Source: a virus (taxonomy: Duplodnaviria > Caudoviricetes). From it: a stretch of DNA of 64,000 bases. The translations under genes and the position numbers were made by a program. The number at the start of each line of letters is the position of its first letter. Position 1 is the stretch's first letter. Under the pieces are notes generated by a model. That model saw nothing but the letters and a program-made list of their open reading frames with translations, had not been told where the DNA came from and made no database searches. Shown here piece by piece: positions 9,107 to 63,411 of this stretch. The stretch spans positions 1,607-65,606 of the IMG/VR virus record IMGVR_UViG_3300042691_005081. One strand, 5' to 3'.

Positions 9107-10300
9107 ATGGCTGATTTTTCATTAACCACGTTATTCGTGGTTCCAGTAGGGCAGAGTGCTGTCCCTAGCTCTGGCTCAACACAAGACCTAACTGCAGGTA
9201 CTGTGGGAATCTTTAAAAATGACTATGCTGTAGCTACCTCTGGTAACATTGCTGCTGCTCCTTATTTTTATATTGCACAAGGAAGACAAAACACCTATCT
9301 TCAAGGATCTAAAAGATCTGATAAGATTGGAGTTCAAACAACTTCTTTAACAGGTAATGCTCAAACAATTACAACAAAAAATTCTAATGTAACAGAATGG
9401 TATAAAGTATCAGGATGTCCTACAGCTGCTAATCAAATTACTGATGTAAGCAATTTTACTGTACAATGTGGAGAAGTTATTACATTAACTTTGCGTGCTC
9501 ACTCATCTTATATTGACACATTATATTTTAATGGATTTACACGTTCAGTAACTATACAAGCTCCATGCTGTAATTGTGGTGATAATCCTTGTGATGATGT
9601 AAGTGATGATATAATTATCAATTCATTAATTACTAAATTAAGACAAGCTGCTCCAGGTAACAACCCTGATAACATTAGTTTTAATACTTTCTTTACATTT
9701 GAAAACATAGGAGGTACAACTTTACGTATAACAGGAAAACCATTAACTAAATATGGTCAACCTTGTGATATTGCTGCATTCCCTTTTGAATACGATAGAT
9801 TAACATTTAGAACATTTGTTTTTTCTGGTCCTGCTACTACTGCTGACTTTATTGTTGATGACAATTGTAATCTAGTTGCCACTCCAACTATAACTCAACG
9901 TTCTTCTTATCCTACAGGACAATCTGCAGAAATTGCTCAATTAGAGAAAAATTTCTACAGCTATCAAGCTGGTTACTTGAAGCATTTATATAGAATGAAT
10001 GGATATAATGAGAACTTTGAATCTTATGTATCTGATGGCCAAACTTATAATACTTTCTATATTAGATTTAATGAGTATGACAAATCTGCTTATCAATGGG
10101 GTGATTATATTGAACAAGATTCTACAGTAATCCTTGCTATTCCACAAGGAGGTAGTAATTTAACTTCTGCATTTGAAACAATTTTAGTAGCTGGTTTAGG
10201 CTCTGTTGTAGATCAAGGATTGCCTTGTATAAGTACAACAACTACAACTTCTACTGCTGCCCCATCAACTACCACTACTACAAGTACTAATATACCATAG
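9107..10300 (+). CDS. Abundant structural protein (auxiliary capsid-like) with C-terminal Thr/Ser-rich tail
   Basis: 397 aa, beta-rich, followed by a strong hairpin; ends STTTTTSTAAPSTTTTTSTNIP. Confidence 0.6.
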   Translation: MADFSLTTLFVVPVGQSAVPSSGSTQDLTAGTVGIFKNDYAVATSGNIAAAPYFYIAQGRQNTYLQGSKRSDKIGVQTTSLTGNAQTITTKNSNVTEWYKVSGCPTAANQITDVSNFTVQCGEVITLTLRAHSSYIDTLYFNGFTRSVTIQAPCCNCGDNPCDDVSDDIIINSLITKLRQAAPGNNPDNISFNTFFTFENIGGTTLRITGKPLTKYGQPCDIAAFPFEYDRLTFRTFVFSGPATTADFIVDDNCNLVATPTITQRSSYPTGQSAEIAQLEKNFYSYQAGYLKHLYRMNGYNENFESYVSDGQTYNTFYIRFNEYDKSAYQWGDYIEQDSTVILAIPQGGSNLTSAFETILVAGLGSVVDQGLPCISTTTTTSTAAPSTTTTTSTNIP

Positions 10301-11049: not shown

Positions 11050-11412
11050 ATGTTATTACCAAGACTGACAAATTGTCCAGAATGTGCTAATATACCTTCT
11101 CTACTTAGAAGTATAGATTGTAAATTAGCAGAACTTGGCAATAATTTATACAATAACATATCTTATATGTTAAATAAACCAGTACCTACTGATAACATTT
11201 CTCAATTAATAGGGTATAGAAGAATATTACAATATAAATATATTAACCCAAACTATGCTCATAAATATTCTATAAATATGATTGCTAATAGAGTAGTACG
11301 TTTAACAGCAGGATGTGTTAGTAGATGTAATACACCAGAGCCTTGTATAGAGATTCCATGTGATATTACAATTGTACCAAATCCAACAACCACAACAACA
11401 ACAACAATATAA
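11050..11412 (+). CDS. Cys-rich protein with C-terminal poly-Thr
   Basis: 120 aa ending PTTTTTTTI. Confidence 0.7.
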   Translation: MLLPRLTNCPECANIPSLLRSIDCKLAELGNNLYNNISYMLNKPVPTDNISQLIGYRRILQYKYINPNYAHKYSINMIANRVVRLTAGCVSRCNTPEPCIEIPCDITIVPNPTTTTTTTI

Positions 11413-12564: not shown

Positions 12565-12921
12565 ATGTCACATTCTTTTTTACCAGTTAATCCTTGTTGT
12601 ACAGATGTATTTCCAAACATTCCTTGTGAGTGTACTAATTGTAATAACAACTTATGTGGAACTAATGTAACTCTATCTAGTAATATAATTTATAATGGAC
12701 CTATATTAACTTGTACTACAATTGAGCCATGTGATAATCTTAATGTAGTGTTACAAAAAGTTGATGAAGTTATATGTAATCTATTATCTCAAATAAATAC
12801 ATTAACTACACAAGTTAATACATTAACTGTTCAAATTGTAAATATTAATAGTGATGTTATTAATATTAATAATACATTAGGAACTTGTTGTCCAACTACT
12901 ACTACAACTACAACAATATAA
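12565..12921 (+). CDS. Cys-rich coiled-coil protein with C-terminal poly-Thr
   Basis: Heptad repeat (INTLTTQVNTL); ends CCPTTTTTTTI. Confidence 0.7.
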   Translation: MSHSFLPVNPCCTDVFPNIPCECTNCNNNLCGTNVTLSSNIIYNGPILTCTTIEPCDNLNVVLQKVDEVICNLLSQINTLTTQVNTLTVQIVNINSDVININNTLGTCCPTTTTTTTI

Positions 12922-12930
12922 GTATAAGAT

Positions 12931-13803
12931 ATGTCTAATTGTCCTCAATCAAATAATGAAACAATAGAAACAAATACTATATCATACAATAGTAGCACAC
13001 TCCCTTGTACAGATGTAGATACGTGTGATGATTTAAATACAATCCTTTCTAAATTTAATACTATTATATGTTCTGCTACAGAGAGTGTAAATACAATAAC
13101 AGAAAATGTAGAAAACATTACACAAGATATATCAAATATAACAAATAGTATAACTAATATAAATAATCAGTTAAATACATGCTGTCCCTCTTTTACAACC
13201 ACCACAACTACCACTACAGCACGAATAACTTGTTCAGTTTATAAACTAGGAACTTCTGGTCCTAGTGGTTCTCCTGGAGATAGTGATTTTTCTGCAACAA
13301 GATGTTTTGGAGGTACATTTTCAGACACAATTGTATTTCCTTTAAATGTTAGTACAGGGTGCATAGTTGATTCTTCTTTAGTATTAGGATCTAAAGTTAT
13401 AGTAATTGAAGTAACTCCTTGTCCATCAACTACAACTACCACCACCACTATAACTCCAACAACAACTACAACAAGCACTAGTTCAACTACTACCACAACT
13501 ACTACTGTTGCTCCTACTACCACCACAACTAGCAGTAGCTCAACTACAACAACTAGTTCTTCAAGCACTACAACAACTACTAGTACAACTTCTATTCCAA
13601 CTACTACCACCACTACTACTCTTGGTTTATGTCAAGAGTTTTTAGCAGATGCTGATGGAATACCAGGTACAGTATATTATACAGATTGTACAGGTGTGCC
13701 ACAAGAACTTTTTGTAACCACTACAGCTGGTTTTTGTGCAATACAGGGTACAGTATCATCAGGTGGACCTATAATAAGTATAATAGGACTTTGTCCAACT
13801 TAA
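12931..13803 (+). CDS. Cys-rich coiled-coil protein with long mucin-like Thr/Ser tract
   Basis: About 65-residue T/S/P tract separating small Cys domains; N-terminus paralogous to 12565. Confidence 0.75.
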   Translation: MSNCPQSNNETIETNTISYNSSTLPCTDVDTCDDLNTILSKFNTIICSATESVNTITENVENITQDISNITNSITNINNQLNTCCPSFTTTTTTTTARITCSVYKLGTSGPSGSPGDSDFSATRCFGGTFSDTIVFPLNVSTGCIVDSSLVLGSKVIVIEVTPCPSTTTTTTTITPTTTTTSTSSTTTTTTTVAPTTTTTSSSSTTTTSSSSTTTTTSTTSIPTTTTTTTLGLCQEFLADADGIPGTVYYTDCTGVPQELFVTTTAGFCAIQGTVSSGGPIISIIGLCPT

Positions 13804-13813
13804 AACCAATATT

Positions 13814-14089
13814 ATGACAGTATTAATAACATTAACAACAGCAGGAACATCCTCTGGCCCATTTAATTTATATTCAAATCTTGATGGATTTTTAACTCCA
13901 TTTGAAACAGGTGTATCTAAATCATCATTACTTGCAGGATATGCTTCTGCTCTTGTTCCTGATTTTACATCAGCCATAAGAATTTTATCAGGAGGAAGTT
14001 GTTCTAATTATATAGATGTTATATTACAAAACACAACTACAACTACAACAACTATAGCTCCTACTACTACAACCACAACAACAATTTAA
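13814..14089 (+). CDS. Small beta-rich protein with poly-Thr tail
   Basis: LT-x-A-x-x-x-SGPF N-terminal motif; ends TTTTTTTIAPTTTTTTTI. Confidence 0.7.
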   Translation: MTVLITLTTAGTSSGPFNLYSNLDGFLTPFETGVSKSSLLAGYASALVPDFTSAIRILSGGSCSNYIDVILQNTTTTTTTIAPTTTTTTTI

Positions 14090-18290: not shown

Positions 18291-21200
18291 ATGGCAGATA
18301 ATCAAGAACAATCTCAAGGTAATATAAAAACCGATTATAATGTTGCACAAACTGGTCTTAATATGGACCAAACCCTTAATCAAGTTAAGAAAGGGCAACT
18401 TACCTATGCATTAAACGCTTCTGTTGAAAACTTTGATGCTAGTTCTGTTAATTATCAAAATGAACCTGGAAATGAATTTTGTTTAACATTTCCAGATGAG
18501 TATGTTCTAATAGGAGATTATTTTATACAAGAAAAAAATAAACATATATTCTTTATTACAAATCCAAATACAGGAGACAGTGAAATAGGATATATGGATA
18601 ATAATGATTGTCAGTATAAAACATTAGTTAATGCTAAATGTTTAAATTTTAATATTAACTATCCTATACACAAAACAGCACATAAGATTACAAATTGTAC
18701 AACAGAAATATATTGGACAGATGGATATAATTCTAGAAGATATTTAGATATTGAAAATATTCCTTATTTATTAAAACCTAATGCAGATTTGTGTAATCCA
18801 GAATATACAAATCAACTAGACTGTAATCAATTAAAATTACAACCTAATTTTAGTATTCCTTTATTAAATGTTTCTGATATAACAACAGGAGGAGATTTAA
18901 CAGCAGGAACTTATCAGTTTGCTATCCAATATTCAGACCCTGCTGGTAATCCATATACATCTTACTACTCTGTAACAAATCCTACACCTATAGCTGATAT
19001 ATCATTAGCTACAGTTAATTTTAATTATCAAGTAGGTAAATCTATTATAATTGATGTAAACAATTTAGATGTTACAGGACAGTTTCAATATTTTAATTTA
19101 GCTGTAATTAAAACTATTAATAATATTACTTCTGTTGAATTAGTAGGAACATACTTTATTGAAGAAGCTAATAACAAAATAACATATACAGGACAGATAG
19201 TAGATAATATACGTCTTTCTATAAATGATATATTTGAAAAATTTCCACATTATGAACTAGCAGATGATTTAACAGCTGTACAAGATGTTTTAGTTTGGAA
19301 AGGACTTACATCTATAGACAGAGTTAATTATCAGTCTATAGCTTCTCAAATTAGCTTACAGTGGGTAACATATAAAATTCCTGCTTCAGAAAACTATGCA
19401 GATGAATTAAACGCTACAAATCTTAGAGGATATTTAAGAGATGAAGTATATGCATTTGAGTTTGTTCCAATATTAGCTAGTGGTAAACAAATGGATGGTT
19501 TTCATATTCCAGGAAGAATAGCAAATTCTTCAGATTTATTTCCTGTTTATAAGAATACAAATGATGATTTTATAGGGGATGAATTACAAGCTCCTACGTG
19601 GCAAATATATAATACAGCTTCTGTAATAGGAGATGCTTTAGGAGAAAACATAGGAAATGCCACCCCTTATCAATATGGAGAGTTTGCTTATTGGGAATCA
19701 ACAGAGGAATACCCTTGTAATACAAATGTATGGGGAGAGTTAGCAGGGCAAAAAATAAGACATCATAAATTTCCAGATGTATTAGTTAGTCCTATAAATG
19801 AAACAGCTATATTCTCTACATTAAATACAGCAACAATGGGTAATACAGCTGTATTTCCTATAGGAGTAAAAATAGATACACAACAAGTTATTTCTTTAAT
19901 ACAAAGTTCATCTCTTACAGCAGAACAAAAAGCAGACATTGTAGGGTATAAAATAGTAAGAGGAGATAGATCTACAAATAAATCTATTGTAGGAAAAGGA
20001 ATTCTTCGTAATGTAAATGAATATAAAAGAGAAGAACAAACTTTTTATTTTCCTAATTACCCTTATAATGATTTAAATGAAGATGCTTTTTTAAATTCAA
20101 ATAATAATGCTTGGGCACAAATATGTGAAACATGGCTTTTATACATTAGATTTTTAAATGATGATCCTAATGGTGGAGCTCCTTTTGTTGAAATAGATTA
20201 TGTAGACTGTAATACAAATAAATCAAGTAGACAAAAGTTTTACACATTAGGAGAAATAGAATTTTGTGCTATAGGAAAACCTATTTTTATAGGAGAAACA
20301 ACAAGAGTAAATACAGGATTTCCTTTTCCTACAATTATAAGAAATGAAATTGGATATGCTAATTATGATGGATGGTTAATTGCATCAACAGGTGTTTGTA
20401 GAGGATGGAGAGCAGAGTATAATGATGCAATAAATGGAATTACTACTCAATGGTTAGGAGGGTTTGGTGGTTCTACTAGATCCTTTGAAATACAAGTTGT
20501 AGTAGGGAGTGCTCCTACATGTATAGAATATTGTGATAGATGTGGTATTACTATTGAACGTAGACCAGGAAAAGATAGAAGATCTACTATCAAATGTAAT
20601 GAATCAACTTCTCTTCCTGGTTTAAATACTAATCTAGCAAAAAGACAAGTATTTAATTCTCCAGAAACTTCTTTTGGACAACCTTTTTTAGGAAATGTTC
20701 TTAAACTAGAAAATGTAATATTTGGAAAAGGACAAGCTCACTTTGTACAAGTAAAAGACAATGCTAAATATAGATTATTAACTAAAGAAGCTCAAAGAGA
20801 TGCTTTAGATAGTTCTAGTAGACTAGGAAACATAAGTTCTCCTTTTAGTGCTGCTGCAATGTTTGCTACATATCAAGCATATTTAACTATTTATTTAAAT
20901 GGAATAACAAGAAAAAATTATGCTTATAGTTATAATTCTATAGCTGATTATAATTATAATGTTAGTGTTCCTAATAATGGATTTAAACAAAGAATGCTGG
21001 ATATTAAAAAATATTTAATTCCTGCAGTTCAGAATGTTGGAGATACACATAATATTAATAATTTTCAAAGAGAAAGTTCTGTATTTTTAAAAACAAAAGA
21101 ACTTTTATCAGCATTACCCTTTCCTAGTGCTAGTGCTAATATGGCTTCTATAGGAATTACAGATAAATCTAGATTTACTATAGGTGAAAGTAATGCTTGT

Positions 21201-24035
21201 GCAACACCAGCTAAAGAACAAGATATTAGTGTAGTTTCTTATTATGCTTCATTAAAGAATATATTTGTAAATCAATGGGGACAAATGTATTCTTATAAAA
21301 CAATTGATACAGGGTTTCAAGTAGATTTAAATAGCTCTTCTCAACCAACAACAATATTTGGAGGAGATACATTTATCTCTAGATTTACATTTAAAACTAA
21401 ACTTCCATTCTTTATAGATAATAGAGTAAATGCTCCAGATGATAGTGATGTATTTTATGATGAGATTGGTAATATTGCCTATCCAAAATTCTGGCATTCT
21501 GCTAGAAGTATTTTAGAAGATTATTCTGGAAATGGTTCTGGTGTTATAACTAATATTGTTTCATATAAAGCACATAATTTTGATTGTCCTAATAGTCAAT
21601 TACCTGCACCACCAGCTAGTAATCCTAATAGAACATTTTATGATGGATATTTTTATTTGTTTGCATATGGAATTCCTAATTTTTATTGTGAATCAAGTTA
21701 TAACACAGATTTAAGACAAGCGTTTAATAATAGAGAAGGAGATTTTTGGCCACATGTTTCTACAGGTATTCCTGATGATTGGGTACAAGAAAGTTTTGTT
21801 TCTATAGCAAATGATAATACATATAACTATAATGTAACATATTCTAAACAAAATAAAGAAAACTTCTTTTCACATCTTCCTCCAGATTGGGAAGATAAAT
21901 TATGTTTTACAAATTATCCATTTAGAGCAATATACTCTGATTTACAAAATATAGACTCTGACAACAGAGTAAATAATTGGTTAATATATAGAGCAACATC
22001 ATATTTTGATTTTCCACAAAACTATGGAAATTTTATATCTATTGATGGTATTCAAAACAAAGCAGTATTAGCAAGATTTGAAAACAAATCATTAATGTAT
22101 AATAATCTATTAACATTAGATACAAGTAATCCACAAGCTGCTTATTTAGGAAATCCTAGTTTATTTAAAGGTGCTCCTCCAATTGATTTTGCTGAAACAG
22201 ATTTAGGATATGTTGGTAGTCAAAATAAATTTTTATTAAAAATACCACAAGGACAAATTACAATAGATGCAAAAAGAGGTCAGATATTTTTAATTGAAGG
22301 AACACAAGCTGTAGATTTAACAGCATTTGGTTCTGGTGTAAATAGATTTATGACAGATCACTTAGCTTTTGAAATATTAAGGTATTTTCCAGAAATAAAT
22401 ACAGATAATCATTTTAATGGTATAGGAATACATGGTGTATATGATAGTAAGTTTGATAGAGTTATAATAACTAAATTAGATTATATTCCGCAGTCTAATG
22501 ATGTTAAATACAATAAAGAAGATAATGAATTCTATGTAGAGACAATTATAAATAATACTCCTATTAAAACACAAGTGTATTTAACAGATACAGATTTTTT
22601 CTGTAATAAATCTTGGACAATATCATTTAATTTTAATACAAAATCATGGACATCATTTCATAGTTATATTCCTAATTGGTATATAGGAGAAAATAATTTC
22701 TTTTATTCTGGAATAAATGGATGTTGTACATCTTTTGATGGAAGTATTGAACTATTAACTGGTGTAGTAAATCGTCTTATAACAACAACAACTACATCTA
22801 CAATACCAATTACTACTACTACCACATCAAGTACAATATCACCAAAATGTTTATTAGAAGGAACAGCAGTGGCTACATCTTGTGAATTAGTAGGAACAGG
22901 AATAATTACAGTTCCTTCTCCAACTACAACAACTACTACTACACCTTGTTCTAGACCTCCTGGCTTAAGTACATTTGGATTCTTTACTGGTTATCAAGTA
23001 GATGGGGAGTCTCCAGTTGATTCAACAGGAAATCTCACTGATGTTTGTAATGCAATTGCATTTACAGGATCTGCTTTTGTAACAATGTTTGGTTTTGAGG
23101 TTATGACTTCTAGTCTTTCTATTAATAGTGTAGTTTATAATGGATTAGGAATTAGTTGTACATTAGCTCCTGATGGATGGTATTTTACAGATGAAAGTCA
23201 ATCAGATGGAATTGCTTATCATGTAGTTGGAGGAGTAATTGTAGAAATTGCTAGTTGTGATTGTAGCACCACCACTACCACCACTAATATCTCTCCTAAT
23301 ATAGAAGAATGCTGTGGTATATTACTTAATACAAATGACACTGTTTATTATACAACATTAGAGAATACTATTTTGAATACATTAAATGTCCCAGGATTTA
23401 CTTCTATATATGGAATAGCTATGACAGCTAATTATTTATGGAGTGTAACAACATCATTTTTACAATGGGATATTACAACAACCCCATTCACTGCTACATA
23501 TAATACAGCAATTCCTTTTCCTGGAACATTTACAACATCTTCAGGAATAGTTGCAATTAGTGATAGTGTAATTATAGCTGTTGATGATTCTGTTACCCCT
23601 CCAAATATTGTAGAATTAGAAATTGATAATCCTATTGGACCAACATCAATGACTCTTTCTATACAATTTGCTCTACAAACAGATAGAGTGGCTATTACTA
23701 ATATGTTGTATACAACAGAAGGAAAATTAATTGTAGTAAATCAAGATACTACATCTAGTGATTATTATATAACACAATATAATTATTCTACAGGAAGTAT
23801 AGAATTAGACTTAAATATAGAATCAATAGTTCCAACATCAATTTTCCAATGTGATTGTATAATATACATCACTACAAGTTTAGGAATTATGTATTCTATA
23901 GAAAGAACAGCTCCTTATTCTTTAGTAGAGGTAGAAACAATAACAAATTTATTACTTTCTGCAACACAAATAGCAACATGTGTAACAACAGGATTACTTG
24001 AAATTACAACTACCACTACTACTACAACAGTATAA
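18291..24035 (+). CDS. Tail stabilization/muzzle protein (P22 gp10-like) with Thr/Cys-rich C-terminal extension
   Basis: IYWTDG, YLRDEVYAF, IRHHKFP, FGGDTFI and SWTSFHSY motifs of crAss muzzle proteins; four Thr tracts in the C-terminal ~420 aa. Confidence 0.75.
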   Translation: MADNQEQSQGNIKTDYNVAQTGLNMDQTLNQVKKGQLTYALNASVENFDASSVNYQNEPGNEFCLTFPDEYVLIGDYFIQEKNKHIFFITNPNTGDSEIGYMDNNDCQYKTLVNAKCLNFNINYPIHKTAHKITNCTTEIYWTDGYNSRRYLDIENIPYLLKPNADLCNPEYTNQLDCNQLKLQPNFSIPLLNVSDITTGGDLTAGTYQFAIQYSDPAGNPYTSYYSVTNPTPIADISLATVNFNYQVGKSIIIDVNNLDVTGQFQYFNLAVIKTINNITSVELVGTYFIEEANNKITYTGQIVDNIRLSINDIFEKFPHYELADDLTAVQDVLVWKGLTSIDRVNYQSIASQISLQWVTYKIPASENYADELNATNLRGYLRDEVYAFEFVPILASGKQMDGFHIPGRIANSSDLFPVYKNTNDDFIGDELQAPTWQIYNTASVIGDALGENIGNATPYQYGEFAYWESTEEYPCNTNVWGELAGQKIRHHKFPDVLVSPINETAIFSTLNTATMGNTAVFPIGVKIDTQQVISLIQSSSLTAEQKADIVGYKIVRGDRSTNKSIVGKGILRNVNEYKREEQTFYFPNYPYNDLNEDAFLNSNNNAWAQICETWLLYIRFLNDDPNGGAPFVEIDYVDCNTNKSSRQKFYTLGEIEFCAIGKPIFIGETTRVNTGFPFPTIIRNEIGYANYDGWLIASTGVCRGWRAEYNDAINGITTQWLGGFGGSTRSFEIQVVVGSAPTCIEYCDRCGITIERRPGKDRRSTIKCNESTSLPGLNTNLAKRQVFNSPETSFGQPFLGNVLKLENVIFGKGQAHFVQVKDNAKYRLLTKEAQRDALDSSSRLGNISSPFSAAAMFATYQAYLTIYLNGITRKNYAYSYNSIADYNYNVSVPNNGFKQRMLDIKKYLIPAVQNVGDTHNINNFQRESSVFLKTKELLSALPFPSASANMASIGITDKSRFTIGESNACATPAKEQDISVVSYYASLKNIFVNQWGQMYSYKTIDTGFQVDLNSSSQPTTIFGGDTFISRFTFKTKLPFFIDNRVNAPDDSDVFYDEIGNIAYPKFWHSARSILEDYSGNGSGVITNIVSYKAHNFDCPNSQLPAPPASNPNRTFYDGYFYLFAYGIPNFYCESSYNTDLRQAFNNREGDFWPHVSTGIPDDWVQESFVSIANDNTYNYNVTYSKQNKENFFSHLPPDWEDKLCFTNYPFRAIYSDLQNIDSDNRVNNWLIYRATSYFDFPQNYGNFISIDGIQNKAVLARFENKSLMYNNLLTLDTSNPQAAYLGNPSLFKGAPPIDFAETDLGYVGSQNKFLLKIPQGQITIDAKRGQIFLIEGTQAVDLTAFGSGVNRFMTDHLAFEILRYFPEINTDNHFNGIGIHGVYDSKFDRVIITKLDYIPQSNDVKYNKEDNEFYVETIINNTPIKTQVYLTDTDFFCNKSWTISFNFNTKSWTSFHSYIPNWYIGENNFFYSGINGCCTSFDGSIELLTGVVNRLITTTTTSTIPITTTTTSSTISPKCLLEGTAVATSCELVGTGIITVPSPTTTTTTTPCSRPPGLSTFGFFTGYQVDGESPVDSTGNLTDVCNAIAFTGSAFVTMFGFEVMTSSLSINSVVYNGLGISCTLAPDGWYFTDESQSDGIAYHVVGGVIVEIASCDCSTTTTTTNISPNIEECCGILLNTNDTVYYTTLENTILNTLNVPGFTSIYGIAMTANYLWSVTTSFLQWDITTTPFTATYNTAIPFPGTFTTSSGIVAISDSVIIAVDDSVTPPNIVELEIDNPIGPTSMTLSIQFALQTDRVAITNMLYTTEGKLIVVNQDTTSSDYYITQYNYSTGSIELDLNIESIVPTSIFQCDCIIYITTSLGIMYSIERTAPYSLVEVETITNLLLSATQIATCVTTGLLEITTTTTTTTV

Positions 24036-57383: not shown

Positions 57384-60017
57384 ATGCCAGCATTAACAAA
57401 TAATACATTAACAAAACAAGTAGATTTACCTGTATGGGAGTGGACAAGATTTGCACCTGCAGTAAGTTCAGCAATATCAAGTTCTTGTTCAGCAGATAAT
57501 GGTAATTTTATGCCAGAAGAGCACGGTAGATACATCTATTATTTAATTTCTGCAACTTCGTTTGTAAAACACGATACTTGGACTGATATGTATTTGCCAG
57601 TATCTACACCTCCAATAGCTCCTGTTAACTTTAGTGCTATGAAGTATAGCGGTGCATTAGGCATAGATGGAAACGTTATTGCAGCAACAGCAAACACGCT
57701 TACTATTCCGTCAATTACAATGCAATCTTTAAAAGGATATGATGTTGAAATTGTTTCAGGCACAGGTGCAGGACAACGTAGAACTATCACAGGAGTAGCA
57801 GAACCAGTTATTGCAGATAGCGGAATAGTTACAGCAGTCAACAACGTAGCAGGAGCTTTAAATATTACAGATACATTAAAAGCATTTTCTGGTAATCAAT
57901 ACGCTGGTTACACTTTGCGTATTGCAGGAAACGCAGGAGTTTCTCAAATTAGAAGAATATTATCTAATACTGCTACTCAAATTGTTTTGGCAGATACTAC
58001 CCAAATGAATGAAACTTGGAATAACCCTGCAATATTTAACCCTGCAATTAACGCAACAGCGGGTTCACAAGCTGTTTATTCTATTGAATCGCAAGTTATA
58101 ACACTTGACTCGGCTTGGGGTGTAACTCCTGATGCTACTTCTGTTTTCAGAGTACAATCAGGATTGGTGATATTAGTTTCTAATAATACAAGTGCGCCAT
58201 TTTTTACGATGCAAGCATACGATCAAATTTCAGATACTTGGTACGTCATGCCAGCAATGCAAAATATTTTTGCAGCAGCAGGAAATGATCTTAGTATTGA
58301 AAGAACTACCGAAAACTCATCTATTTGGGAAAGAGGTATTGCAGCGGCAGCAAGTACAACAACAACGCTTGTAGATGCTTCACAAGGAGTTGATAGAGCG
58401 GCTTGGACTACAGATCAATGGAAAGATTATTGGGTTTACATTTATTCGGGAACAGGTGCAGGACAAATTAGACGAATTGCTTCCAATACAGCAAACACAC
58501 TTACTTGGGCAACCGCTGGTACTGCTCCAACTGCAACTAGTCGTTATTTTATAATTGGTTTTGATGCGGGAATTGCTACAGCAGGAGCATCTACAACAAT
58601 AACAGATAGTACAAAATCTTGGGAGGTTAACAGATGGAGAAATTATGCTGTTAGAATATTAGCAGGAACAGGAGCAGGACAGCTTAGACCTATTGCTTCT
58701 AATACAGCTACAGCATTAACCATTGTAGGAACTTGGGCAACTACTCCAGATAACACTTCTGTTTTTGCTATACAAGGCGACCCAAACAAACTATACATTC
58801 AATTAGGGGGTGTTAATGCTTTAGCAATACACAATATAGATTCGCAAGTACCAACTTTTGGAAGACAGCAAGACTTCGGTATTGCTAGAAATGCGGCTGC
58901 AACAGTTGAAGGACATAACCCTGTTGCTATTGCTTCTTTTGCAAATGCTACAAGTACAGCAACAGCTACCACAGCTCATCCGCATCAATTCAAAGTGGGG
59001 CAATTAGTAACTGTAAGAGGCGCAACAGATGCTAACTTTAACGTAACAAATGTGGCTATTGCTACCGTTCCATCAGCAACTACTTTTACTTATGTAATGG
59101 CAGGAACTCCAGCATCAACTACAATTGTTTCATCTCAATCAACTACTGTATTGGTAGATGCTACAAAGAACTGGACTGTCAATCAATGGGCAGGACAAAC
59201 TGTTTATATGTACACAGGTGCGGTTACTGCTGCAAATGGTAGTACAGCTGGTCAAGCGTTTAGAATAGCAAGTAACACAGCCACTACTTTAACTCTTGTG
59301 GCAGTTGGTACTGCTCCGACAAACGGAGTAAGTAGATACGCTATATCAACTTCAACAGCTATTGGTGCTGCTGACTTTGGAGTAGCAACAGGAACGCAGT
59401 CAGCTACAACTTTACAAGATACAACTAAATCTTGGGCAAATAATATTTGGGCAGGAAAAAGATTGAGAATATTAACTACGACAGGTTTTAGTGCAGAAGT
59501 GAATATTACTTCTAATACTGCCAATACACTTACTTTTCCAGCAATTACTGCACCAACTACATTAGTAACAGAATATGTAATTTTAGAACAAGCACAAAAA
59601 AATCAAGGAACTAATGTTAACTGGGCATTTGGTACAAGTGATTTAGCCACAAGAGGAAAGTATATGTTTGTTGTTCGTGGCGGTGGTGCTATAGGATTTG
59701 ACAGATTTGACTTAACTACTGATAGATGCAATCAAATGTTTACTTCGCCACTAACCGAAACTTTATCTACAGGAACAATGACTGCTTATGATGGAGCTGA
59801 TAATATATTCTTTCACAAGGATGCCACGCAGAGGGTAATGTCCTTAAATGTGGTAACTGGTAGAGTAAATGGTGCTTCTATGTACCCTTACGCTCCGCCA
59901 ACGGCAGTTATAGGAAACAGAATGGAAATATTTACAACTAAGGATGGATTAAAATATATATGGTTAAATCGTGCATCTTTTGCAGAATGTTTCCGTTGCT
60001 TAATTTTTTGGACATAA
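57384..60017 (+). CDS. Repeat-containing receptor-binding/adhesin-like protein
   Basis: About six repeats of D..K.W..NQW.G..V.I..GTGAGQ.R.I.SNTA..LT flanked by propeller-like segments. Confidence 0.6.
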   Translation: MPALTNNTLTKQVDLPVWEWTRFAPAVSSAISSSCSADNGNFMPEEHGRYIYYLISATSFVKHDTWTDMYLPVSTPPIAPVNFSAMKYSGALGIDGNVIAATANTLTIPSITMQSLKGYDVEIVSGTGAGQRRTITGVAEPVIADSGIVTAVNNVAGALNITDTLKAFSGNQYAGYTLRIAGNAGVSQIRRILSNTATQIVLADTTQMNETWNNPAIFNPAINATAGSQAVYSIESQVITLDSAWGVTPDATSVFRVQSGLVILVSNNTSAPFFTMQAYDQISDTWYVMPAMQNIFAAAGNDLSIERTTENSSIWERGIAAAASTTTTLVDASQGVDRAAWTTDQWKDYWVYIYSGTGAGQIRRIASNTANTLTWATAGTAPTATSRYFIIGFDAGIATAGASTTITDSTKSWEVNRWRNYAVRILAGTGAGQLRPIASNTATALTIVGTWATTPDNTSVFAIQGDPNKLYIQLGGVNALAIHNIDSQVPTFGRQQDFGIARNAAATVEGHNPVAIASFANATSTATATTAHPHQFKVGQLVTVRGATDANFNVTNVAIATVPSATTFTYVMAGTPASTTIVSSQSTTVLVDATKNWTVNQWAGQTVYMYTGAVTAANGSTAGQAFRIASNTATTLTLVAVGTAPTNGVSRYAISTSTAIGAADFGVATGTQSATTLQDTTKSWANNIWAGKRLRILTTTGFSAEVNITSNTANTLTFPAITAPTTLVTEYVILEQAQKNQGTNVNWAFGTSDLATRGKYMFVVRGGGAIGFDRFDLTTDRCNQMFTSPLTETLSTGTMTAYDGADNIFFHKDATQRVMSLNVVTGRVNGASMYPYAPPTAVIGNRMEIFTTKDGLKYIWLNRASFAECFRCLIFWT

Positions 60018-60795: not shown

Positions 60796-61512
60796 ATGGC
60801 AATAGGCAGAAAACAAATAGGATGGAGTAATGAAAGTAATTTACTTTGGCAAATTTCTAAGTTAATAGATAGATTAATAAAAACTATTGCTTCAAGCGGT
60901 GGAGTTCCAACACTTCAACAGGTTTTAGATAATAACCACGATTTAGTTGATAACAATAATTTTCAAGGTACAGAAGCTGGTGTAAGGAACGAAGGAGCTT
61001 ATGTAAATGCTTTTGGGCAACAAGCAGCACAAGATAATACAGGCACAAGTATTAACGCTTTTGGCTTATCTTCTGCTCGTGAAAATACAGGAAATGATGT
61101 AAATGCTATTGGTTATTACGCTGCAAATAATAACTCAGGAGATAATGTTAATGCCATAGGTGCAGATTCGGGTAGTGGAAATTCAGGAGTACACGTAAAC
61201 GCTTTTGGTAATAGCGCAGGAAAAAACAATACTTATAAGAACGTCAATCTTTTTGGATATAACGCTACTGCAGATGCTGATAATCAAACAGTATTTTCAA
61301 AGTGGTTAGGTGGTGTAAATAAATATTTAGGTAGATTATCATTTAACAATATCACAGATGATAGAACTTGGAAGTTGCCTAATCAAAGTGGAACATTAAC
61401 TGTTTTAGAAACTTCAAGTAATTATGCATCAGATGCTTTAGCAGCAGCAGGAGGAATACCTGTTGGAGGATTATATCATACAGCAGGAGTTGTAAAAATT
61501 AGACTTGTATAA
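60796..61512 (+). CDS. Fibre/spike protein with beta-roll-like VNAFG repeats
   Basis: QIGWS N-terminus, PTLQQVL, six 14-aa N.G..VNA.G..A repeats. Confidence 0.65.
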   Translation: MAIGRKQIGWSNESNLLWQISKLIDRLIKTIASSGGVPTLQQVLDNNHDLVDNNNFQGTEAGVRNEGAYVNAFGQQAAQDNTGTSINAFGLSSARENTGNDVNAIGYYAANNNSGDNVNAIGADSGSGNSGVHVNAFGNSAGKNNTYKNVNLFGYNATADADNQTVFSKWLGGVNKYLGRLSFNNITDDRTWKLPNQSGTLTVLETSSNYASDALAAAGGIPVGGLYHTAGVVKIRLV

Positions 61513-61514
61513 TT

Positions 61515-61910
61515 ATGGGAACATCAAATGCACAAATAGGATGGAGTCAAGAAGCCAAACTATTACAGGAAATAACAAAACAATTACAGAGAGCTGTACA
61601 AGTTGCAGGTAATCCCCCAATCACTACAACTACTACCACTACTACTGCTCCATTAGTTTTAATAAATGGTAACTACTATTCTGGAGGTTGTGTACCTTGT
61701 GAATCTGCTTGTATTTCTACACCAGTTAATTTATACATGGAACAAGCATGTATTGATATTATTACTATTGGATGTCATATATATCTTGATTTGGAAAGAA
61801 CAACTAATGCTTCTGAAGGATATTATGATAGATGGGATGGAGTGGGAGGAATACTATATGTTGATGCTAATGGATTAGTATTAAATATAGATGTATGTCC
61901 ACAACCTTAG
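61515..61910 (+). CDS. QIGWS-family protein with poly-Thr linker and Cys-rich domain
   Basis: PPITTTTTTTTAP linker. Confidence 0.7.
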   Translation: MGTSNAQIGWSQEAKLLQEITKQLQRAVQVAGNPPITTTTTTTTAPLVLINGNYYSGGCVPCESACISTPVNLYMEQACIDIITIGCHIYLDLERTTNASEGYYDRWDGVGGILYVDANGLVLNIDVCPQP

Positions 61911-61946: not shown

Positions 61947-62966
61947 ATGAAAAAAGATGTTATATTATGCACAGCTCAACCGACAGACACCTATTTTGTA
62001 TGGCAAAATCATTTATTTATAGAGTCTTGTTTAGAACAAGGATTTACAGAAGATCAAATACATATTCTTTTATATAATCCTATAGGAAGACCACATAACT
62101 CTAATTGGGATAAACTAAAAGAATGTTATCCTAATATAAACATATTTACTTATCAAGATAGGGGAATTCAACAACATTTAGGAACTTATATTCCTATATT
62201 AAGACCACATATTCTTTGGCAACATTTTGAAGCTTTTCCAGAATTACAAGATAGAACAATTATATATACAGATAGTGATATTCTTTGGTTAAAATCATTA
62301 AATATAAATCATTTATTAGAAGATGATGTTAATTATGTTAGTGATGCTAATTCTTATTTAAATAACTCTTATTTTGAAAGTAAAATAAAAGATGTTCTTC
62401 CAGAAAAATTAGAAGAATACAAAAAAAGAGATGTAGTAAAAGAACTTTGTACAATAACAGGAATAGATAAACAAACAGTATTAAACAATAATTCAAACAC
62501 AGGAGGTGTACAATATATACTAAAAAACATTAATTCTGATTTTTGGAAGAAAGTGGAGAAAGATGTTTTAGTTATTAGAACACATTTATTAAACTTTAAT
62601 AAAGAGTTTTTTAAAAATGAAAACTCAGGTATCCAGTCTTGGTGCAGTGACCTTTGGGCATTACAATACAATCTATGGAAATTTGGAAAAAGTAAAGTTG
62701 CTAAAGAATTAGATTTTGCTTGGAGTACAGATCCAATAAGTAAAATAGATACATATCCTATTCTTCATAATGCAGGAATAGTTTCTGAAACAGGAAATGG
62801 TTATCCAGCTTTTTACAAAGGAAAATACCATCAAGGCTCTAATCCAATAAAAGATGCTTATTTAGATGTTATTCTTAACAATGAAGAATCAAAAAAGTAT
62901 TGTACATGGTATTACACAAATAAATTAAAAGAATTATCAATAAAATATAACTTAAACTATAATTAA
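61947..62966 (+). CDS. GT-A fold glycosyltransferase, resembling GT95/GT96 protein O-glycosyltransferases
   Basis: YFVWQ, YIPILRP, IIYTDSD (DxD), GGVQY, WCSDLWA and ILHNAG motifs in order. Confidence 0.7.
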   Translation: MKKDVILCTAQPTDTYFVWQNHLFIESCLEQGFTEDQIHILLYNPIGRPHNSNWDKLKECYPNINIFTYQDRGIQQHLGTYIPILRPHILWQHFEAFPELQDRTIIYTDSDILWLKSLNINHLLEDDVNYVSDANSYLNNSYFESKIKDVLPEKLEEYKKRDVVKELCTITGIDKQTVLNNNSNTGGVQYILKNINSDFWKKVEKDVLVIRTHLLNFNKEFFKNENSGIQSWCSDLWALQYNLWKFGKSKVAKELDFAWSTDPISKIDTYPILHNAGIVSETGNGYPAFYKGKYHQGSNPIKDAYLDVILNNEESKKYCTWYYTNKLKELSIKYNLNYN

Positions 62967-62967
62967 T

Positions 62968-63411
62968 ATGTCTATATTTATAAAACCTGGTTTTTGGGAT
63001 GAAAGAACAATAGCACCAAAGTATTGGTTCAATCTCGAACAATACATAAAATCTTTTATTCCTCCTGTAGTTTCTACAACCACAACCACAACAACCGCTC
63101 CTCCATATAAAGTATATACAGCTTTAATAACACAATCAGGAACAAATCCACCTACTTCTATTGTATTAGAAAATACTATTGGAACTATAACATTTACATA
63201 TACAGCTACAGGATTTTATTCAGCAGTTTCTACAGGGTTGTTCACACTTAACAAAACAGCTTGTTTTATTAATGAATCAAATGGTAATACTACACTAATA
63301 GCAAAAGCCAATAATGTAAATTCCGTAACTATATTATCACAAAGTCCAACAGGTAATTTTCAAAATGACAGTATAGATAAAGCAACATTAGAAATAAGAG
63401 TGTACTCTTAA
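62968..63411 (+). CDS. Structural-type protein with poly-Thr linker
   Basis: STTTTTTTAPP followed by a YKVYTALITQSGT...IEIRVY-like beta domain. Confidence 0.7.
   Translation: MSIFIKPGFWDERTIAPKYWFNLEQYIKSFIPPVVSTTTTTTTAPPYKVYTALITQSGTNPPTSIVLENTIGTITFTYTATGFYSAVSTGLFTLNKTACFINESNGNTTLIAKANNVNSVTILSQSPTGNFQNDSIDKATLEIRVYS

Follow-up and report, generated by a model that had tools for sequence, protein, structure and literature searches.

A GT-A glycosyltransferase gene among poly-threonine protein genes of a tailed phage: a candidate for O-glycosylation of virion proteins

Background

Glycosylated virions have reportedly been found in mycobacteriophages Che8, Corndog and Myrna (Freeman et al., Cell Host Microbe, 2023). 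Such phages carry a glycosyltransferase (GT) of their own which, by prediction or by demonstration, modifies capsid and tail-tube subunits at their C-terminal extensions and gives the particle a coat of sugars. Virion glycosylation in mycobacteriophages is a known precedent (PMC11256854). Here we describe a putative relative in function, a gene located at positions 61,947 to 62,966 of a 64,000-nucleotide stretch of DNA from a tailed virus (Duplodnaviria; Caudoviricetes; positions 1,607 to 65,606 of IMG/VR record IMGVR_UViG_3300042691_005081), hereafter called the window. We propose likewise that its product decorates virion and fibre-like proteins, and in phages carrying the family the transferase gene shows genetic linkage to capsid and tail proteins that bear tags, as it does in mycobacteriophage-type systems. 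The two cases differ in several respects: the hosts belong here to other phyla, Bacteroidota and Firmicutes; the proposed acceptor is a pure poly-threonine (poly-Thr) tag, found also as internal stalk of small fibre-like proteins; and the enzyme represents a family without name (PHROG 4417) and without Pfam match, known from sequence alone.

Several other groups of enzymes invite comparison. LgtC, glycogenin, Skp1 alpha-galactosyltransferase Gat1, GlyE, the C-terminal domain of WbbM and UGGT are retaining GT-A enzymes of CAZy families GT8 and GT24. The metal triad of GT8 consists of an Asp-x-Asp (DxD) motif and a late histidine. The glycocin enzymes described so far belong to GT2, come from Firmicutes and modify Cys, Ser or Thr residues located in loops. 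A64R of Chlorovirus PBCV-1 (PDB ID: 2p6w) is a glycosyltransferase of major capsid protein whose acceptor glycans are N-linked; it comes from a eukaryotic virus, and its fold match to the protein studied here is weaker than that of GT8 enzymes. The last group comprises plant and algal HPAT (GT95) and SGT1 (GT96), with the same job as the one proposed here, transfer of the first sugar onto hydroxy-amino acids in repetitive, extended tracts, so that a functional analogy would be apt. GT95 is described as related to GT96 and the arabinosyltransferases as anchored in the Golgi membrane (PMC8012813), a point of difference, as the window protein shows no anchor. Predicted folds are given as GT-A-like for GT95 and as novel for GT96 (PMC8476585).

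Proposed function

Our results make it probable that the gene codes for a soluble, cytoplasmic, metal-dependent GT-A enzyme placing the first sugar onto Thr of poly-Thr virion and fibre-like proteins, a function suggested by comparison of gene neighbourhoods. Such an enzyme would use a nucleotide sugar donor and start the glycan on the hydroxyl groups of Thr residues that stand in runs of five to eight. It would act during making and assembly of virion proteins, late in infection, and would leave the particle with stalks and tails glycosylated in the manner of mucins. Likeness to GT8-type enzymes suggests a retaining, alpha-linking mechanism, and a small GT2 protein, whose gene lies 2-9 kb from that of the enzyme in complete relatives, may extend the glycan. 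That Thr is the acceptor and that the enzyme initiates rather than extends is what we infer. The acceptor had already been named in an earlier reading of the window's letters (the sequence-only reading); the pairing of gene and tracts in phages, an absence control and bacterial peptide clusters now give it comparative support.

The enzyme gene and its family

The feature in question is the following:

61947..62966, plus strand: glycosyltransferase gene, 339 amino acids, single ATG-started open reading frame (ORF); predicted GT-A fold, DxD motif D109/D111, late H274, PHROG 4417

The window represents 64 kb of a 65.6-kb contig with estimated completeness of 56% (CheckV). Its G+C content is ~30%, and it encodes portal, major head protein and tail-fibre-like genes together with giant ORFs of 4346 and 2056 amino acids. 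All motifs on which the sequence-only reading relied are found in the translation and in the order it described: YFVWQ (residues 16-20), ESC, YIPILRPHIL (from Y81), IIYTDSDIL (containing D109 and D111), GGVQY (186-190), WCSDLWA (232-238) and ILH (ending with H274). In an alignment of 51 sequences, residues Y81, D109, D111, Y137, Y142, Q230, F257, H274, K291 and Y323 are invariant, and R86, Y107, G186, G187, Q189, Y190, D235 and G277 are conserved in at least 90% of the same sequences. The listed motifs coincide with conserved columns and thus represent the core of a true family, not chance strings.

At E<=1e-3 the enzyme is matched by 728 cluster representatives (best E 1.1e-148), a profile search with the family alignment retrieves 1356 proteins, and 498 viral contigs encode a relative. 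The family is present in 77 GenBank phage records, every one of them annotated as hypothetical or similar; phages of Staphylococcus, Clostridium and Arcanobacterium and Lactobacillus myophages are also among its carriers. PHROG 4417, a group of unknown function, is matched at E 1.3e-46, residues 8-319 aligning with profile positions 4-285 of 293.

Absence of a signal peptide, also claimed before, agrees with the structural model, in which the first beta strand is formed by residues 5-12. Because this strand begins at residue 5, neither a signal peptide nor a membrane anchor would fit ahead of it, and inspection of the sequence by eye shows no hydrophobic leader (no dedicated predictor was run).

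A quick maximum-likelihood tree of 42 rows, left unrooted, contains three well-supported groups:

Group 1, support 100: clade of ~338-residue proteins, formed by the window protein and metagenomic relatives

Group 2, support 99: four Firmicutes phage proteins

Group 3, support 98: 14 bacterial fusion proteins

The direction of transfer is not readable from an unrooted quick tree of this kind.

Two annotations of homologues deserve mention. In Enterococcus phage 9183 (MT939241.1, ORF095), the annotator's note names a PqqD-family peptide-modification chaperone as homologous. For phiFL2B (GQ478085.1, gp49), the feature under the match is named "major tail protein", either a mislabel or a neighbouring tail gene. 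Homologues with 44-50% identity are also located on contigs of metagenome-assembled genomes from Sediminibacterium (L006, 111,986 bases), Saprospiraceae (L004) and Cytophagales (L005). The first of these contigs is close in length to the 113-125 kb of the group's complete phage genomes and is probably a phage genome binned with a Bacteroidota host, which gives a weak hint of the host.

Fold and named glycosyltransferase families

A model built by AlphaFold2 with the 51-sequence alignment reached a pLDDT (predicted local distance difference test) of 96.1 and a pTM (predicted template modelling score) of 0.92. The Rossmann-like fold that binds nucleotide sugars in GT-A enzymes is present in the model, and it is predicted to be of the GT8 type of retaining enzymes. 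Foldseek search of PDB returned WbbM, the catalytic domain of UGGT, glycogenin, XXYLT1 and LgtC at E ~1e-6 with TM (template modelling) scores of 0.41-0.46. Fold comparison by VIA-align against 48,161 representative chains gave these scores:

LgtC: 14.7 (root-mean-square deviation 3.6, 238 residues aligned)

Glycogenin: 14.4

Skp1 alpha-galactosyltransferase Gat1: 14.4

WbbM: 14.2

UGGT: 13.9

Anaerococcus GT8 protein: 13.3

GlyE: 13.2

The nearest folds are therefore those of GT8/GT24, and they include both an enzyme of lipooligosaccharide (LOS) synthesis, LgtC, and protein-directed enzymes, namely glycogenin, Gat1, GlyE and UGGT. In a library of viral structures, family members are found first (an uncultured phage protein and Orf49 of Lactobacillus phage LP65), followed by GT8-type proteins of giant viruses.

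In their arrangement along the sequence, DxD and late histidine of the window protein resemble the putatively equivalent metal ligands of the GT8/GT24 enzymes. D109-S-D111 and H274 are invariant in all 51 sequences, with equivalents invariant in 31/31 bacterial homologues. The difference lies at the level of sequence, where the window protein does not show membership: identity in structural alignments to GT8/GT24 enzymes is merely 7-11%, no Pfam family matches the enzyme at E<=10, Glyco_transf_8 matches none of the 51 relatives at E<=1, and a profile search of PDB chains gave chance repeats (TAL-effector repeats at E 0.03). Legionella LPG1670, obtained at E 0.056 when the single protein was searched against PDB sequences, is a chance match as well. 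The earlier call of a glycosyltransferase is upheld by the predicted GT-A fold with its invariant DxD. According to the model, it is a retaining GT-A glycosyltransferase similar to those of GT8 but too distant in sequence to be filed in any named family.

Poly-threonine proteins around the gene

Association between the enzyme gene and poly-Thr tracts was evaluated in 80 related viral loci, whose enzymes are 49-81% identical to the query. A run of at least five Thr occurs within 1.5 kb of the enzyme gene in 76 of them, and at least one ORF with at least five consecutive Thr occurs within 10 kb in 69, as opposed to 5 of 42 bacterial loci. Near the gene there are 259 runs in 225.9 kb (1.15 per kb) and further away 47 in 912.7 kb (0.05 per kb), all on the strand of the enzyme. 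Poly-Thr ORFs near the enzyme (ATG-started, at least 40 amino acids) number 204, with median length of 77 amino acids, and in 127 the run ends no more than three residues from the C-terminus. After masking of Thr/Ser runs, 194 of the 204, from 78 loci, fall into one cluster by single linkage, a method that can chain unrelated members. Window ORF 61515, the upstream neighbour of the enzyme gene, belongs to this cluster, and an example member carries the same short N-terminal module as ORF 61515 and the preceding ORF 60796; this shared module presumably helps to hold the cluster together. Many cluster members are micro-proteins of 45-80 amino acids.

The window itself contains eight plus-strand ORFs with runs of five to eight Thr. 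Four of these end with seven or eight Thr (T7-8), one hydrophobic residue and a stop codon. Two of the eight flank the enzyme gene and carry T7-8 as a linker behind an N-terminal module of ~35 residues. The genes around the enzyme are:

60796..61512, plus strand: fibre-like protein of the same cassette, 238 amino acids, no poly-Thr tract, N-terminal module as in ORF 61515

61515..61910, plus strand: upstream neighbour and candidate acceptor, 131 amino acids, conserved N-terminal module, T8 at residues 37-44, Cys-rich C-terminal domain; 36 nucleotides to the enzyme gene

62968..63411, plus strand: downstream neighbour and candidate acceptor, 147 amino acids, T7 linker at residues 37-43; begins 1 nucleotide past the enzyme stop codon

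BLASTP comparison of ORFs 60796 and 61515 gives E 5e-06, with identity mostly in the first ~30 residues. The common module is likely the virion-anchoring part of mini-fibres, and the enzyme gene is embedded in a cassette of mini-fibre genes, built of anchor module and Thr stalk or tail. Further candidate acceptors are encoded far upstream:

9107..10300, plus strand: head/tail-module protein, 397 amino acids, two Thr/Ser blocks at the C-terminus; candidate acceptor

11050..11412, plus strand: 120-residue protein with terminus T7-I-stop; candidate acceptor

12565..12921, plus strand: Cys-rich protein, 118 amino acids, terminus T7-I-stop; candidate acceptor

12931..13803, plus strand: 290-residue protein with seven runs of at least five Thr, mucin-like stalk; candidate acceptor

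13814..14089, plus strand: 91-residue protein with two terminal T7 blocks; candidate acceptor

18291..24035, plus strand: virion protein, 1914 amino acids, four internal Thr runs and T8-V-stop tail; candidate acceptor

Codons within the Thr runs are mixed (ACT 55, ACA 49, ACC 24), which means that the tracts are not simple DNA repeats. ACC is much more frequent in the runs, with 24 of 128 codons, than in seven other large window genes, where it makes up 24 of 702 Thr codons. The mixing looks deliberate and perhaps serves against slippage or for tRNA supply.

Other phage lineages and absence control

The same pairing is seen in phages of other lineages. In Enterococcus phage phiFL1A, gp50 codes for the major tail protein, and its final base is also the first base of the homologue, gp51; the gp50 product terminates in a block of 21 Thr/Ser residues. 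Three Thr blocks form the terminus of phiFL1A gp45, an unnamed ORF after the scaffold gene and likely the capsid protein. In Lactococcus phage 1706, the homologue orf14 comes directly after orf13, the gene of a major structural protein with T10 and three further residues at its end; capsid/protease protein orf10 of the same phage ends in T9 plus three residues. The ORF preceding the homologue in Lacticaseibacillus phage R3.3 ends in T6 and T5 blocks, and its tail-tube homologue ends in T6. In Chryseobacterium phage MA9V-3, long Thr/Ser tracts are present in two ORFs immediately upstream of the homologue.

The tail-tube family of phiFL1A, common to 76 phage records, served as a control. The enzyme profile has no match in seven phages with this tail tube (Javan47, phiJL-1, ATCC8014, SPP1, Javan235, phiLpTT2 and SplendidRed), and a run of at least five Thr at the tail-tube C-terminus occurs in none of these seven enzyme-negative phages. 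The same profile finds the enzyme in three positive records at E 1e-55 to 1e-76. R3.3, which is positive, and phiJL-1, ATCC8014 and phiLpTT2, which are negative, are listed in one genus, Coetzeevirus.

Bacterial homologues

Scanning one genome per species yielded 42 bacterial loci, mostly chromosomal, in Sphingobacterium, Pedobacter, Mucilaginibacter, Chitinophaga and Elizabethkingia. The enzyme domain here constitutes the N-terminal 280-300 residues of proteins 450-710 amino acids long. Their C-terminal half is GT2-like, with Glyco_transf_7C recognized in 14/31. Genomic context was scanned for domains in two loci. In Mucilaginibacter sp. X5P1, the order of genes is ATP-binding cassette (ABC) exporter with C39 peptidase, HlyD-type protein, the fusion, LanC-like protein and methyltransferase; in Elizabethkingia ursingii, the LanC-like protein comes directly after the fusion. 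Pattern search revealed 21 small ORFs with Bacteroidota-type double-glycine leader and a core mostly containing six Cys, distributed over 16 of the 42 loci. Examples are:

L025, 2000-2236 and 4452-4724, and L036, 5615-5863: leader peptides (in the series of loci L011-L044)

The first 15 core residues of these peptides contain 32% Ser+Thr and 18% Thr, as compared with 17% and 6% in the remainder. The layout is that of a modified, exported peptide and fits a peptide-directed Thr glycosyltransferase. The leader peptides near the bacterial fusions are a candidate undescribed class of glycosylated Bacteroidota peptides.

Glycocin-type clusters, such as those of sublancin (SunS) and glycocin F, have the same layout, with Cys-rich peptides carrying a double-glycine leader, an exporter with C39 peptidase and HlyD. 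The clusters described here differ from them in the fusion of a GT8-like domain to a GT2-like one, in their occurrence in Bacteroidota and in the presence of a LanC-like protein; they are known from genes alone.

The combined phage and bacterial contexts bear on two other substrates. Phage transferases modifying the host envelope are generally well known, and LgtC, the top fold match, and WbbM act on LOS and O-antigen. The window enzyme could modify an envelope glycan of the host (lipopolysaccharide, capsule or teichoic acid), for example as a block to superinfection, in which case the neighbouring poly-Thr tracts would serve as flexible linkers free of sugar. We consider this very unlikely: in Firmicutes siphophages the gene is part of late structural operons, straight after capsid or tail-tube genes, its presence or absence follows that of Thr tags, its bacterial homologues occur in peptide and not polysaccharide clusters (in the two loci scanned), and a membrane segment was not seen. 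Glycosylation of modified bases in phage DNA, as performed by the T4 glucosyltransferases, is backed only by a general precedent, DNA being a frequent substrate of phage glycosyltransferases. Here it is scarcely credible (relatives were not searched for a base-hydroxymethylase), as DNA-glycosyltransferases are absent among the fold matches listed, the gene resides in structural rather than replication modules, and the correlation with Thr tags and the bacterial peptide-cluster context would be left unaccounted for.

Initiation or extension of the glycan

Five phages with the enzyme family lack any match to GT2 or GT1 at E<=0.01, a search in which controls were matched in 14/14 genomes. The enzyme is the only recognizable phage transferase in these five, and an initiating role is therefore favoured, consistent with the sequence-only reading, which had assigned it the initiating step. 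In complete relatives of the window phage (114-125 kb; G406-G409), four genomes of four have one or two short GT2 reading frames (195-254 amino acids), located 2.2-8.9 kb from the enzyme and on the opposite strand. No GT2 is visible in the window because the contig ends ~1 kb past the enzyme gene. GT2 genes in the complete relatives, together with the bacterial fusion, suggest a two-step glycan in some lineages.

The same observations can be turned around: the enzyme might extend a glycan begun on the Thr tracts by a host enzyme or by the phage GT2. The GT2 genes of all four complete relatives would supply a partner, the bacterial fusion to a GT2-like domain indicates that two steps exist, and Gat1, GlyE and XXYLT1, all close in fold, are enzymes that extend protein-linked glycans. 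Extension is nevertheless unlikely to be the role of this enzyme, given that the five phages without GT2 or GT1 match do possess poly-Thr or Thr-rich tags and that the tags track the enzyme family, not GT2.

Points against glycosylation of threonine tracts

The proposal that the enzyme initiates glycosylation of Thr tracts on virion proteins has to be weighed against the following. A Thr tract is absent from the major capsid protein of the window phage (5076-6638). All 80 viral loci come from a single phage group, so that their synteny is partly inherited and speaks of conservation, not of independent recurrence. ORF calling was mechanical, either between stop codons or starting with the first ATG. 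Independent support comes from five other lineages, and among these Enterococcus phage 9183 is weak: its homologue is located after the gene for the capsid protein, which is without tract, and the end of the tail protein is just TTTSTT. Lactobacillus myophages and the Staphylococcus, Clostridium and Arcanobacterium carriers were left out of the survey of Thr tracts. Likeness of fold does not fix the acceptor, and the top match, LgtC, uses lipooligosaccharide. D109, D111 and H274 are putative metal ligands, as judged from their conservation. Literature searches, with few subscription journals covered, yielded no experimental work on members of the family and nothing on phage proteins with poly-Thr tails or glycosylated Bacteroidota peptides, and we infer, rather than observe, that the poly-Thr proteins are glycosylated.

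Relation to plant GT95 and GT96

The sequence-only reading had compared the protein with plant GT95 and GT96 enzymes. This specific kinship was not established. PF23452 (HPAT) does not match the enzyme at E<=10; it matches 3 of its 51 relatives, all below the threshold of 23.9 bits and with best E of 0.012. Other GT-A families, Glyco_transf_34 and DUF6492, are equally weak on other members. PF23452 found no match in the enzyme's own genome, none among 40 proteins scanned singly, none among 31 bacterial homologues, none in 50 related viral records (with a loose prefilter) and none in 401 Bacteroidota genomes. In a search of five bacterial genomes, one 15.7-bit match was located elsewhere in the Mucilaginibacter genome and is unrelated. 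A homologue search started from a Myxococcota-type member gave at least 120 listed matches, none of them with Pfam annotation, and the matches listed in the family-profile search are just close relatives without annotation. Among the 30 nearest named clusters of the ESM Atlas, 20 carry PF23452 on 10-58% of their members, and DUF7164 is present on 6 more. GT95 or GT96 structures are not among the fold matches in the PDB-based comparisons; to our knowledge, no structure of either family has been solved. Kinship with the plant families is thus a faint lead, suggested by language-model neighbours and three weak matches, and our tests neither confirm nor exclude it.

Implications

A wider view can be offered tentatively and with more doubt than confidence. 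PHROG 4417 and the bacterial fusions might together make up a hitherto undescribed family, spanning several phyla, of enzymes that O-glycosylate poly-Thr in peptides, a prokaryotic and viral sister of HPAT (GT95) and SGT1 (GT96). In phages of Bacteroidota and Firmicutes, its members would cover capsids, tails and mini-fibres with brushes of mucin-like glycans by means of a portable Thr7-8 tag; in Bacteroidota, the domain fused to a GT2-like extender would add sugars to exported, Cys-rich peptides similar to bacteriocins, at their Thr-rich N-termini.

If the proposed function is true, sugar-coating of the particle is not peculiar to mycobacteriophages and is widespread in phages of Bacteroidota and Firmicutes, following a simple code of about seven threonines and one enzyme. 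It would bear on adhesion of phages to mucus and cell surfaces, on immune recognition and on behaviour of therapeutic or dairy phages, and the tag and enzyme would make a compact, portable pair for glycoengineering. In soil Bacteroidota, the relatives of the enzyme point towards glycosylated peptides of a class that is still unexplored. Cultured carriers of the gene exist, namely Enterococcus phage phiFL1A, Lactococcus phage 1706, Lacticaseibacillus phage R3.3 and Chryseobacterium phage MA9V-3.

Region upstream of the cassette

Just upstream of the mini-fibre cassette lies an ORF of 877 amino acids (57384-60017) that consists of 14.5% Thr and has no Pfam or PHROG match. It is located in the most G+C-rich part of the window, with a value of 0.395 at 58-60 kb as compared with ~0.30 elsewhere.

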